Shown piece after piece: positions 1 to 6,000 of a stretch of 15,745 bases of DNA. Position 1 is the first letter of the stretch, and every line of letters starts with the position of its first letter. The position numbers are program-made. The stretch is from a virus (taxonomy: Duplodnaviria; Heunggongvirae; Uroviricota; Caudoviricetes). The stretch spans positions 1-15,745 of IMG/VR virus record IMGVR_UViG_2534681835_000028; one strand, given 5' to 3'.

Positions 1-3000
1 TCATTTTTTCCAGAGGCGGTCGAACTCCGCCTTCGCAAAATAAGCGGAAGCCTGGCGAAGGATATCGTTACTGCGGCGCAGTTCACGATTTTCACGTTCC
101 AGCTCTTTCAGACGCTGACGTTCAGCGCTGGTGAGCCCACCATCACCGCCCCCGGTATCCCGCTCATGCTGGCGAACCCAGACACGCAGAGTCTCCGGCG
201 TACAGCCAATCTTTGGGGCAATGGAACAAATTGCCGCCCACTGTGAGTCATATTCATCCTGACTTTCCAGAACCATACGAATCGCCCGCTGACGGACTTC
301 GGGGGAAAAACGAGTATTTTTAGTCATCCTGTTTACCTCTTTCTCAGGGAGTTTAGTCTCCAGGATTTCCGGGGCGGTTCAAGGTTCTGTTTTTCAAAAC
401 AGTTCCGTGCTGAGACAGCCACAAGTACTGTGTCGGCACCACCGATTGTAATCACACTAGATCTAATTAAACACAGCCGTCTGCATTATTTCCCGACTCA
501 TAAAATATTAGCCGTAAATGCATTCGACTTTTAGTGAGTGGAAGAAACTTTCCGCCCTAGCATTATCGTAACAGCGCCCCTTTGCACTCATCCTGTCATG
601 CAGGTATGCCGCTTCAGAAGCGCCTGATAATGCGTTGAAATCAGGGCGGTGGCTACTTGCTATTCAGTTCACGATACAAAATGGGCAATATCCCTTAAGG
701 ACCAGCGCATAGCAATGAGTCACTTTATTATCAAGTTTGATGACCGCTTTGATGCTAACTTTTAATAAGAGTCTCTTCACACAAAATCGTGTACCGAGTC
801 TACACTGAATAACAATCACTCCTCACCGTAAAGTGACCGATACTGCAATCAAACTCACACTGCTCTCTGGCCACAAGCATTGATAATGTTATTGGCTCTC
901 TGCTTAGTGGGTGATGCATCCCATCATTTATTATACGAGAAAGAGCCATTTCATCATATAAACTACATACTCTGGAACCTTCAGCATTTCTTAAAAAAAC
1001 ACCTCGTTGAGGAATTGCCAGCGTAATCGGGCACTGTAATGCTTCATCTATGTAAGACATTTCTTCAATATTAACTAAAAATGAACATGAATGTAATCGC
1101 CGCTGTAACAATTCAATTCTGTTATCATTACTATGCATAAATTCAGAAATAACCTGCCCCATATATGTACTGAATACATCAAGAAATGAATTGCCTCCAT
1201 TCAATTGATTTTCAACAGAATCAGCCAATCTAATGATATCGGCTAGTTCTGTATGGCTTAAACCCGAATATAGTTCCCCTTGAACAGGATCTACAATAAA
1301 AGCGTCCATAGCACTCTGATAGCGAACAGAAAACGATCTTTCTCCTATTGTGAGTCTTTCCATTTGATGATCTCTGGTCGCACGTTGTAAAACTTCAACA
1401 TCTTGTGTTGACAAGTAATTTCCAGAAGACAAATTAAATGAAAATGGCATAATTTTATCCCTAAAGCATATATCTTACTTTTCGATAATTAACAAAAAGC
1501 CATCCTCCACAGCAATACTCCATCAGAATAATTGTAGGATTATTTTAATCTAATTTATAAGCATAAAATATATACTCACTAAATAGCTGCGCAGAATAGT
1601 AGATCATTTAGAGGGAACTCAACCCGATTGTGCGATCTGATCAATCGCCAAATCAATACAAATCACCAACCGGACTGAGCAATGTCGATCATACCACCAA
1701 TTTCCCGTGACGAACGACGCCTAATACAGAAAGCCATCCATAAAAGGCTGACAGCCATGCTGATGCTGCACCGGGGCGACCGTGTCAGCGACGTTGCCCG
1801 CACACTATGCTGCGCCCGTTCCTCTGTTGGGCGCTGGATTAACTAGTTCACACAGTCGGGTGTTGAGGGACTGAAATCATTACCTGCCGAGCGAGCCCGC
1901 CGCTGGCCGTTTGCGCATATCTACACACTATTACGTGAACAGGTAAAATATTCACTCGCGACTTTGGCTACAATTATTCACGCTGGAGTACAGAACTGCT
2001 GACAATAAAAATCAATGAGATAACCGGCTGCCTGTTACATGCTGGAACCATTCGCCGCTGGTTGTCGTCTGTGGGGCTTGTGTGGCGAAGGGCTGCGCCA
2101 ACTCTACGTATCCGTGCCCCGCCTAAAGATAAAAAGATGGCAACAATCCATAACGCACTGGACGAATGCAGCACAGAGCATCCGGTCTTTTATGAAGATG
2201 AAGTATTTATCCATCTTAATCCCAAAATCGGTGCGGACTGGAAACTGCTCGGGAAGCAAAAACGAGGGGTCACGCCGGAACAAAATGAAAAATATTCTCT
2301 GGACGTAGCGCTGCACAGCGGGACAGGTTAAGTCAGCTGTGTGGGCGCCAACAGCAAAAGTTCGGCGCTGTTCATCAGACTGCTGAAGCGGCTTAAAGCT
2401 ACATACTGTCGGACGAAAACCATCACGCTGCTCGAGGACAACTACATTATCCACAAAGGCCGGGAAACCCAGCGCTGGCTGAAGGATAAACCGAAGTGCA
2501 GAGTCATTTATCAGCCGGTTTAATCTCCATGGGTGAATCATTTTGAATAGCTATGGCAGATACTTCACGCCACAATAACGCGTAATCATCAGTGCCGCTC
2601 AATGTGGCAACTATTGAAAAAGTTCGCCATTTTATGGAATCCGTCAGTCCATTCCCCGAAGGCAAACATGGGCTGGCAAAAATGTGCGATATTAGGCGCA
2701 GCTATTTAGTTATTCCGTCATTTCTCCCGCCCGTGTAAACACTACTGAATCTTGTCGTTGTGACAAAGCTATAAATAGTCAATCACAGCACGTTTCTGCG
2801 TACGACGCGCTGCAATTTTCTTTACGATTTATAACTGTACAGGTGAACTATGAGTTATTTGGATACATACATATAGTGTAACGCCTGTTGTATATTTTAC
2901 TCATATCTTTTTACAGGATGAAAACCAATGATACTGGCGCATAGCCTCCTCCAACCTTACCCCTGTATAACACGACTCATATAACCTGGGATTTCATTTC

Positions 3001-6000
3001 GTAGTTTTACAATATCAACACCCGGGGCGATATGTTTCTGATAAAACTTGTCTGCAAGCACGTTTGCTATGTAATCTGTTGTAGTGTTTTTTACAGCTCG
3101 GCTCATACCATCGCAAAGAGCATCCATTTTTTTGCCAAAAGAAGCATTTCCTATTATTATATGATTAATAGAACTTTGTGCCGCTTTAACATCAAGAGTT
3201 AGTTCAAACTCCTTACTTACAAGAGAAAAGACCATTTTCCTCTCTTCAGAAGAAATTTTTGCATTTTTTTGAAGGCAGCAATTATCAATCTCTTGGTTGA
3301 TAACCCTTGACGGATATACTGTCCGTTCATCACTTACCCATCCATGAATATCTTTAGTACTCTGCCTGCTTACCGTCTCCAGTATACAGCCGCTAAATTT
3401 GTTAACATTAAAGCGGATAGAGCGCTCTCCCATTGAACACTTCACGACCTCATCATTCTTCCCACGGATGGTGCCCCGGAAAGAATTATCTTTATGATAA
3501 CTGATACCAAAAGAGCTGAAGGACACACCTGTCGCATTTACTGGCATAACAAATCCTTTTCATTAAAATTTGCTTACAAAAATTGTATACAATCATTTTA
3601 ATTAAAAAATACATGTGTAAATAGCATTCGTTCAAAATTTAATTTTTTGTTTGAATCCTATCACATATTTAGTATCTTGACTCCTGTCACCAATATGGTT
3701 CAATAACATAGACTAAAGAGGGAGAAAATATGCCTGTCATATTAAACTTTTCGAGTGAAAGAGTATTGTCTGAAAGTGAACTGGAGGCTTTACGTCATGT
3801 CGGAAGAGTTAGTCAGAGTGAACAGCTTGTTGTGAGAGGCCGCACTATGAGACTTCATCATATTTCATTTATGGACAGTTTTAGCGTGGAACCGGTTTCC
3901 GGCGGACTGTTGGATCGCCTTAGTGCAAGAGGGCATCGCCTTCTCGCAGAAAATCTGGAGATACAGCTTAACAGAGGCCATACTTTTTTGCAGGCATTCC
4001 GTTTATATATGGAACAGAGCCGTGCAACCCCATGTACGCGCCAAAACGTCAGTAGTGCAATACAAAACAAAATTAACTCTCATGCATTTACTGTTAGTCA
4101 TCAAGACTTTTCCTGTCATGAACAACACCTGAATTGCCCGATAACATTATGCATTCCTGAAACTGGTGTTTTTGTCAGAAATGCAAAAAACTCAGAAATA
4201 TGTTCATTATATGACCACAATGCACTCACTGAACTTATCCGACGCAACGCTCCACACCCTCTCAGCCGTGAACCCTTTGTTCCGGAAATGATTGTCAGCA
4301 AAGATGAATGCCATTTTAATCTAATAGAACAATATTTTTGCATATTAGCCACACAAAATATATGCACTAGAATTTGACTGTATGGTTCGATTTAAATGTT
4401 GCAAAATTAATTTTACTAGTTATTGCCATCTATTTCATACTCCCTAATTCTTGATACAATCTGTCTGTCAAAATAGTAGATTAGATCGAACTTATATTAC
4501 AGCTATTTAGTTTCTAAAATGGAATTTTTAACGTTTTATACTTCACATTACAATCTGTACCATAAGCCTCCTCAGCGAGGTTGCCTGAATACCCTGTCGT
4601 GCCCATTTTTCCATCGGACGCAGTTGTCTGCTCTCTCGAACTGCTGGCAATAAAAATCAACCAGACAGCTTGATGTCCGTTACATGCAGGACTAATCACG
4701 ATTGGTTACCGTTTACAAAACTTGCGTAACATTGGAGGAGAACGAATAATATTCTCTAGCTGGTACGCGTTCCATAGCGAAACGGGCAAGGTCCAACAGC
4801 AAGAGCTGAAACTCAGGGGGATTTATCAGTCGATTTATTCGCCATGGATGAATCACGCTGTACGGTTATGGTAGCTCTTAGCGACAAGGCATAATCATCA
4901 GTACACCAATGTAACAACCGTTGAAAAAGACTCATTATTTTATGAACCAGCCATCCCATTTCCAGAGTGGTAAATATGATTTGTTAAAGTGTAACAGTAC
5001 TCTGCGTAGCCTTTTTAGATTCATAGTTTAATGTTTCTAAATACATTAAATTGCACTATAAGAGAAAGACATAATGTGAGGATAAAAATGCCATTTTCAA
5101 TAAAAAGTATTTTTTCAGGACACACTTGGCATCAACCTGAAATATCTAGGCCTATAGCAGATAAATCATCTACTAAAAATTGTATCTTAGACTCAACAAC
5201 ATGCAATGTAGATGGCTTTACAGTGTTTAACAGAAGATCCTGTAGTTTTGATATGCGTCCTCCCGGAAGCGCAGACAGAACTCCACAACTGAGATTATCA
5301 ATATCAGAAGTCGCATGGATGTCAAAAATAATAGAGACAGAGACAAATAATACAAACAAATCATAGCTATTAGCCCAGAAAAGAGTTGGTACACTAGCCA
5401 TGAATAACTTCCTAACAACTTGATTTTTTAGTTATTTTTTTCTTCATTCTTGAAAAAGGATGCCCCGAAAGGGTTCCAGAGTTCGATTTTCTGCGCTTCT
5501 GCAAATAATCAAGGGGTTACAAAGTGGTTGCCCCTTTGTTTTTAGTGCTCTTGGTATACCCATTGGTACATTTAGCGCAATACCATCTGGTATCACTTAA
5601 AGACACGAAAAACAACTTTTTATCTTTTTGTTTCGCTCAAATTAGTATAAAAAGCCGAACAACAAACAATAAAAAACCATTAACATCAATAGATTATGAT
5701 GGCTTCAATCTAAATAATAGGCTATATAATACTGCAAGACACAACACATGCTGTCACTATGAGTCAACTATTTAGATGATATTAGTGACCTGTTTCAGAG
5801 CATTAGCGCAAGGCGATTCTTTGTCTTCTTGCACTAATTTTTTATCATAAAAATGTTCCTAGCACTGGGCATCAATATCGCAGGTCAGAAAGAGCTCCTG
5901 GGGATGCGGCTGGCCGAAAATGAAGGGGCGAATTTCTGGTTCAATGTGCTGACTGAACTGAAAAACCGCGGTCTGAACGATATCCTCATCGCCTGTGTGT

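Follow-up and report, generated by a model that had tools for sequence, protein, structure and literature searches.

Decayed IS630-clade relics beside espM1 and nleG in the effector locus of an ompW lambdoid prophage

Introduction

The IS630 element of Shigella sonnei (1153 bp) belongs to the IS630/Tc1/mariner superfamily and has a target specificity of CTAG/TA, according to the portion of PMC2170065 that cites Tenzen et al. 1990/1991. The family is recognized by a transposase with an N-terminal HTH and a DDE_3 catalytic domain. ISEc33, the PGAP name for an IS630-like element of E. coli, falls in the same clade and shares its length of 1153 bp, its ends, and its target flanks. An IS630-family relic has also been left beside T3SS effector genes in O55:H7 DEC5E, where it lies between nleE and efa1/lifA and is likewise decayed. 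Lambdoid prophages at ompW, such as Sakai Sp9, contain a region described as an exchangeable effector locus, in which variation is mostly deletional (PMC8112680).

The window analyzed here, a stretch of 15,745 nucleotides, is the effector locus of an EHEC lambdoid prophage at ompW of the Sakai Sp9 type and is 100% identical to O111:H- 11128. It agrees with the Sakai Sp9 locus in gene content and position, carrying nleG, espM1, nleG, espO1-2, nleF, and nleH1-2 beside tail fiber genes, and is a standard example that shows no difference from the Sakai Sp9-type locus. Rfam and promoter/terminator scans gave nothing over background. The initial annotation described three IS630-family segments around the divergent espM-nleG pair and regarded them as repeated copies of one IS family, suggestive of IS-mediated shuffling. 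Each of the segments is real, lies on the + strand, and stands above chance expectation, and the two larger ones, copy 1 and copy 3, do bracket espM1 and nleG in one orientation (Table 1). Together with a small right-end fragment, they are very probably three independent, non-functional IS630-clade relics that predate the spread of the locus and are now inert.

Table 1. Coordinates of the relics and neighboring genes in the window
Feature	Position	Strand	Basis or remark
nleG-family (DUF1076) effector gene	800..1450	-	Context; 131 bp from copy 1 left end
Left half of CTAG target, CTA (duplicated TA 1580-1581)	1579..1581	+	CTA...TAG flanks
Copy 1, decayed IS630	1582..2706	+	Aligned with intact IS630-clade copies; 91.5% identity with S. 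sonnei IS630
Transposase pseudogene	1682..2686	+	Comparison with IS630 frame
Right half of CTAG target, TAG (duplicated TA 2707-2708)	2707..2709	+	Alignment to reference copies
espM1	2957..3547	-	Context
nleG, divergent from espM1	3730..4377	+	Context
Putative solo right-end remnant, 47 nt	4464..4510	+	Exact terminus plus weak collinear upstream similarity
Spacer, 61 nt	4511..4571	.	No detectable IS630 similarity; score within shuffle distribution
Copy 3, old or divergent IS630-clade relic	4572..5015	+	tblastn, DNA tile scan, block alignment
TAG at copy 3 right end	5016..5018	+	Alignment reaches IS630 positions 1154-1156 of CTA+IS+TAG

Copy 1: ends, target site, and identity

Over its full length, copy 1 is colinear with intact IS630 copies of 1153 bp. 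It shares 91.5% identity over 1125 nt with the S. sonnei element, from which it differs in being 28 bp shorter (1125 bp) and in having no intact transposase frame. It is further from ISEc33 (82.8% identity) and from the O55:H7 DEC5E relic (82%), a separate insertion at another locus that shares its ends and CTA/TAG flanks. A repeat search returned arms of 21 nt at 1578-1598 and 2690-2710 that are 90% complementary, within which the terminal inverted repeats are IRL 1582-1598 and IRR 2690-2706; their first 11 nt, AATAGCTGCGC, are perfect and equal those of IS630. The element had been placed at 1577-2710 with 15-bp imperfect inverted repeats, and both the repeats and the TA duplication hold, with the element proper confined to 1582-2706.

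The element sits between CTA and TAG, as expected of insertion at the TA within CTAG with duplication of the TA, and the same flanks surround all five reference IS630-clade copies compared. Every IS630 insertion yields the same TA duplication, so the duplication is no evidence against earlier recombination between copies. Searches for an empty site, with the joined flanks in E. coli complete genomes and with a 22-nt junction pattern in GTDB species representatives and IMG/VR, returned nothing. Because no empty-site allele was found, the insertion is read from the CTA/TAG flanks and not seen directly. Copy 1 is identical (100%) in O157:H7 and O111 genomes. It is already known by annotation, as 'IS630 Family: IS630 partial' in Sakai, and PGAP labels it a frameshifted IS630 family transposase.

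The transposase pseudogene

The transposase had been described as broken by a stop and frameshifts; broken it is, with a higher count of lesions. Four in-register stops occur at 1844, 2329, 2521, and 2548 (codons 63, 225, 289, and 298), two 1-bp deletions shift the frame at 1958 and 2617 (codons 101 and 321), 24 bp have been deleted in frame at 1745, and the stop codon is disrupted at 2686. When these lesions were repaired, the protein scored 198.5 bits against NCBIfam NF033545 transpos_IS630 (equivalog cutoff 100) and 67 bits against Pfam DDE_3, and it also matched HTH_23 and HTH_29. It thus has the HTH and DDE_3 architecture common to S. sonnei IS630, and membership in the IS630 family, as first proposed, is borne out. 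Codon changes relative to IS630 number 56 nonsynonymous and 26 synonymous, a ratio that, together with the four stops and two frameshifts, indicates a pattern of neutral decay. An intact transposase frame is found in neither copy 1 nor copy 3, the latter having lost more than half of the transposase gene.

Copy 3: an older or more divergent relic

Copy 3 aligns with IS630, at ∼77% identity, as a series of four collinear blocks finishing precisely at the terminus and its TAG. Its right terminus is kept and its left end is absent: IS positions 1-228 are missing, and three large internal deletions remove roughly IS630 279-437, 518-726, and 780-937. Support comes from tblastn matches to the ISEc33 transposase (E=6e-8) and to an IS630-type F1022 transposase (E=8e-7), and from a DNA-level tile score of 117 against a null maximum of 26. 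A truncated relic had been recognized at about 4630-5021, and it is confirmed as such with other bounds, 4572-5015; the start lies 58 nt earlier, where 4572-4621 aligns to IS630 229-278 with a score reached by none of 300 shuffles. No signal was found for an extension into 4511-4571. The stitched protein of copy 3 gave no profile match in NCBIfam or Pfam.

No relative of copy 3 above ∼77% identity was found among E. coli genomes and all plasmids searched; identity is ∼75% to ISEc33 and ∼78% to the O55:H7 DEC5E relic. Copies 1 and 3 are ∼79% identical to each other over alignable blocks, and their divergence from IS630 is unequal, at 91.5% and ∼77% identity, respectively; they are not repeats of a single element. 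Copy 3, which neither the Sakai annotation nor PGAP marks as an IS, overlaps the 'hypothetical protein' call ECs1823, which is probably spurious.

The small right-end fragment

Between nleG and copy 3, in a stretch (4378-4640) that is single-copy and seen at this locus only, lies a third segment in the same orientation. It had been reported as a 50-bp right-end fragment at 4461-4512, of which the exact terminus survives, with bounds of 4464-4510 and weak upstream similarity. The sole exact match is CAGCTATTTAG (11 nt, 4500-4510), made up of the 8 terminal nt of the IS and the TAG, with the terminus CAGCTATT at 4500-4507 and TAG at 4508-4510. Upstream, 4464-4483 has weak collinear similarity to the IS630 right-end interior and is separated from the exact terminus by ∼16 unmatched nt; of 500 shuffles, 2 to 7 scored as high with three of four references and 45 did so with copy 1. 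Extension into 4378-4463 gave no signal. Assignment of this segment as a putative IS630-clade remnant is based on the 11-nt exact match and marginal flanking similarity.

It is unlikely that 4464-4510 is a coincidental match or a miniature (MITE-like) element instead of the remnant of a full IS, yet several observations fit such readings: the region does not rise above the null in a generic 200-nt tile scan, the exact match spans 11 nt only, and a similar match with one mismatch at 5765-5775 is chance. Against coincidence, the exact match falls on the very terminus plus TAG, and the 11-mer with at most one mismatch occurs four times in the window, compared with 0.25 expected (no shuffle of 200 reached four); the low shuffle counts for the upstream similarity with three references point the same way, and solo 56-nt IS630 right ends are known elsewhere in E. 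coli. Against a MITE, which has both terminal inverted repeats in a short non-coding element, no left end was found upstream of 4464. Reading the segment as a MITE or an inverted left end was also rejected on scores, as the left-end orientation was reached by 59 to 142 of 500 shuffles. The segment is probably a solo right-end remnant.

Two further searches concern neighboring candidates. The match at 5765-5775 (CAACTATTTAG, one mismatch), considered as a possible fourth terminus, lacks any flanking similarity and was dismissed as chance, and a 23-nt pattern taken from the right of the small fragment returned one chance match in other species, in a Firmicute, and nothing else.

Population survey and recombination

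The initial annotation had proposed comparing strains for presence, absence, or inversion of the 2711-4460 segment. The locus proved collinear in a single piece in 514 of the 515 genomes carrying it, and in those 514 the segment 1400-5200 is at least 99% identical and colinear. Two structural variants were inspected, and neither bears out shuffling by the relics. One breaks within copy 3, at 4705, directly against IS2 with IS600 adjacent, and its replaced material extends far beyond the left end of copy 1, to ∼600; the other is a deletion that starts at 4412, with its left breakpoint outside the relics.

The relics had also been credited with providing homology for future deletion or inversion. 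Direct repeats yield deletions and not inversions, and these repeats, being in the same orientation, cannot invert the segment between them. RecA recombination needs ∼25 nt of perfect identity, and copies 1 and 3 share too little for it because their longest exact shared stretch is 13 nt. The deletion product, represented by a query joining the sequence left of copy 1 to that right of copy 3, occurred in none of 5,426 complete genomes. Neither the identity nor the recombinant alleles expected of recombination-competent dispersed repeats were thus found.

It is scarcely credible, on this evidence, that the relics are still-active recombination substrates whose low-frequency deletion of the effector pair has been missed by complete genomes. 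The direct orientation of the repeats would suit such deletions, deletions in the effector locus are frequent among ompW prophages (PMC8112680), and one variant does break inside copy 3. The 13-nt limit on exact identity and the lack of the predicted junction in 5,426 genomes weigh against it, however, and the break at 4705 abuts IS2, with IS600 beside it, in a replacement that reaches left of copy 1.

An unlikely alternative: a composite transposon origin

IS630-clade relics in one orientation on both sides of the pair, with CTA (1579-1581) and TAG (5016-5018) at the outer ends, could also be the decayed arms of an IS630 composite transposon that brought espM1-nleG into the prophage effector locus. 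Such composites can transpose experimentally, according to the part of PMC2170065 that cites Tenzen & Ohtsubo 1991. This origin is nevertheless very unlikely. Joint arrival predicts equal divergence, whereas the arms are unequally decayed, and the CTA/TAG flanks are expected of any single IS630 insertion and are uninformative. On its inner side, copy 1 abuts a ykgJ-like fragment and not effector DNA. Homology with the paralogous espM2-nleG pair is confined to 2946-4351, that pair lacks IS630 flanks, and the module occurs at one locus only, so that two copies of the same IS around a cargo found at more than one site, the mark of a composite transposon, are not seen.

The surroundings of the espM2-nleG paralogue were considered as a possible second case of IS630 flanks. 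What adjoins the pair is a truncated, IS2-like fragment of orfA, and this candidate was rejected, the neighboring transposase fragment being of IS2 type.

Mobilization in trans is a further conceivable route. Copy 1 ends differ from those of IS630 at few positions per end, and an intact IS630-clade transposase from a co-resident genome or plasmid might mobilize copy 1; its left end might also pair with the right end of copy 3, so that the 3.4-kb segment carrying espM1-nleG would move as a non-autonomous composite. We regard this as most improbable; if true, it would implicate IS630 in the exchange of effectors between prophages.

Discussion

The preferred account remains that of three independent relics, the order and independence of whose insertions we infer. 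Their identity, ends, target site, lesions, and invariance across the population are shown by the data above. Copy 1 would derive from a simple cut-and-paste insertion of IS630 into CTAG in nleG-espM1 intergenic DNA, with the TA duplicated, after which point mutations and small deletions would have destroyed its transposase. Downstream of nleG, copy 3 and the 47-nt end fragment may represent insertions that are older, or more divergent, and have been eroded by deletions. The relics are virtually identical across the O157, O111, O145, and O121 lineages, so their decay probably preceded the phage spread of the locus among them.

The segments are ordinary, already-known decay debris in a thoroughly studied EHEC prophage locus. 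Today they would be inert filler, encoding no transposase and sharing too little identity for recombination, and the survey provides a clear negative in that they are not driving espM1-nleG rearrangement in the ∼515 sequenced carriers. Useful outputs of the analysis are the exact boundaries for the annotated IS630 pseudogene and two unannotated relics, at 4464-4510 (putative) and 4572-5015.

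IS630-type relics around the espM1-nleG pair

Three plus-strand relics, here called copy 1, the small fragment and copy 3, were correctly assigned to the IS630 family in the initial annotation: the repaired copy 1 protein passes the NCBIfam transpos_IS630 model at 198.5 bits (cutoff 100) and also matches Pfam DDE_3 and HTH domains. Copy 1 is 91.5% identical to Shigella sonnei IS630, 90.5% to the copy of isolate F1022, and 82.8% to ISEc33. The alignments used first F1022 and ISEc33 of strain AH02, two intact relatives of 1153 bp whose 343-aa transposases are uninterrupted, and later S. 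sonnei IS630. Homology begins at AATAGCTGCGC and stops at GCGCAGCTATT, and all copies examined are preceded by CTA and followed by TAG, with bases outside these flanks varying between copies. These limits and flanks define an element proper of 1125 bp, narrower than the 1577-2710 originally proposed; the inverted repeats of that proposal are real, recovered in a repeat search as 21-nt arms with 90% complementarity.

Positions of the relics and neighboring features
Feature	Window positions	Strand	Correspondence
Copy 1, element proper	1582-2706	+	
Copy 1, inverted arms	1578-1598; 2690-2710		
ykgJ-like fragment	2777-2939		chromosomal ykgJ
Small fragment	4464-4510	+	
Copy 3, extra block	4572-4621	+	IS630 229-278
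Copy 3, block	4638-4716	+	IS630 438-517
Copy 3, block	4739-4793	+	IS630 727-779
Copy 3, block	4808-5018	+	IS630 938-1156, with TAG
Copy 3, tblastn	4632-4697	+	aa 111-132
Copy 3, tblastn	4717-4764	+	aa 202-217
Copy 3, tblastn	4779-4989	+	aa 270-342
ECs1823 / WP_001414184	4514-4660	-	hypothetical protein
espO1-2 (ECs1821)	5088-5366		T3SS effector
CAGCTATTTAG sites (up to one mismatch)	two copy 1 ends; 4500-4510; 5765-5775		
Integrase fragment	7525-7926		L001 18525-19201

IS630 is described as targeting CTAG and duplicating TA (Tenzen et al. 1990; Tenzen & Ohtsubo 1991, as cited in PMC2170065), and the putative insertion site of copy 1 reads ...CAC-TA-GTT...; no empty-site allele was found in E. 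coli complete genomes, GTDB representatives, or IMG/VR. Since every IS630 insertion duplicates TA, these flanks are no bar to ancient exchanges between copies.

The transposase of copy 1, initially described as broken by a stop and frameshifts, is indeed so and carries further lesions. Compared with the intact IS630 frame, it has four in-register stops (1844, 2329, 2521, and 2548), two frameshifting 1-bp deletions (1958 and 2617), a 24-bp in-frame deletion (1745), a deletion that hits the stop codon, and 56 nonsynonymous and 26 synonymous codon changes. The Sakai annotation already marks 'IS630 Family: IS630 partial' with pseudogenes ECs1826 and ECs1827, and PGAP labels it 'IS630 family transposase; frameshifted; internal stop'. 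In O157 and O111 genomes copy 1 matches at 100%, so its decay is older than the spread of the locus.

Copy 3, marked as an IS in neither annotation, was recovered as collinear pieces by tblastn with intact transposases (best E-value 6e-8), and when the entire window was scanned in tiles for IS630 similarity, only 1500-2800 and 4500-5100 clearly exceeded the shuffle maximum, both on the plus strand. Gap-tolerant alignment gave three robust blocks, the last ending exactly at the terminus, and an extra block is significant alone (0/300 shuffles reach its score). The truncated copy first reported from about 4630 therefore stands, with its start moved some 58 nt upstream by this extra block. Its identity is 75-79% to all references, copy 1 included, and no closer relative was found in E. 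coli genomes or the plasmid collection. The small fragment and copy 3 are separated by 61 unassigned nt with no IS630 similarity; the hypothetical protein annotated on the minus strand, which overlaps this spacer and the beginning of copy 3, is probably spurious.

The only exact match to the IS630 end in the small fragment is CAGCTATTTAG, an 11-mer that occurs four times in the window with at most one mismatch, against 0.25 expected. The 60 nt upstream of the small-fragment terminus include CTGTCAAAATAGTAG...ATTA, collinear with the right-end interior CTGGCAAAAGTGTAGCGGTATTA, a score reached by 2-7 of 500 shuffles for three references. Judged from sequence, the small fragment is probably a solo right end, and solo 56-nt ends of similar kind are present elsewhere in E. 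coli. A reading as an inverted left end was rejected as not significant in the shuffle test, and the match at 5765-5775, which has no flanking support as a fourth terminus, was taken as chance.

Gene neighborhood

The 1400-5200 segment is 100% identical to E. coli O111:H- 11128, where tonB, yciABC, and ompW flank it at one end and lambdoid tail genes at the opposite end. Another 514 complete genomes, among them O157:H7, O111, O145, and O121, carry it at 99% identity or more. In Sakai it falls within 'prophage Sp9; lambda-like phage', with nleG9 (pseudogene), espM1 (ECs1825), nleG (ECs1824), espO1-2, and nleF. This region of ompW prophages has been described as an exchangeable effector locus (PMC8112680). 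Within the effector locus, nleH1-2 and a truncated nleG have between them a tyrosine integrase fragment with a frameshift, also seen in comparison locus L001. It is possibly a vestige of prophage-into-prophage integration, which has been reported for these prophages (PMC8112680).

Copy 1 does not abut the effector module, because the DNA directly to its right, before the 3′ end of espM1, is a fragment unannotated in both records with 71-75% identity to chromosomal ykgJ (YkgJ family cysteine cluster protein). A gap of only 72 bp separates the right end of copy 3 from the start of espO1-2, so relic DNA may hold part of the espO1-2 promoter. Short inverted or direct repeats at effector starts (1433-1450, 3730-3745, and 5088-5104; ATGCCATTTTC..., ATGCCTGTCA...) reflect MPF/MPV N-termini common to nleG, espM, and espO; they are not IS ends. 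Anecdotally, other IS630-clade copies also occur near T3SS effector genes, one between nleE and efa1/lifA in O55:H7 DEC5E and one near a ShET2/EspL2 effector gene of S. sonnei pSS_046.

Rearrangement and age of the module

The proposal that the relics provide homology for deletion or inversion of espM-nleG was not upheld. The copies are in direct orientation and their longest uninterrupted match is 13 nt, so inversion between them is excluded by geometry and homologous deletion is implausible. Strain comparison, suggested for 2711-4460, revealed no relic-driven change: 514/515 carriers are a collinear single piece over 1400-5200, and a joined-flank query found the outer flanks of copies 1 and 3 united in 0/5,426 genomes. 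Two rare structural variants were inspected, and both are independent of the relics: strain 90-3040 has IS600 and IS2 in place of ~600-4704, the nleG-IS630-espM1-nleG block, and O157:H7 PV15-279 has a deletion from 4412, 34 bp after nleG, into nleH1-2. ISEc8 lies further downstream in O157 genomes.

The relics are confirmed with refined coordinates; their main part was already known, the feature is ordinary, and the functional implications proposed are not supported. The divergent layout of espM and nleG predates the relics. A paralogous espM2-nleG pair at potB (77% identity) aligns only over 2946-4351, and the transposase fragment beside it is IS2-type, not IS630.
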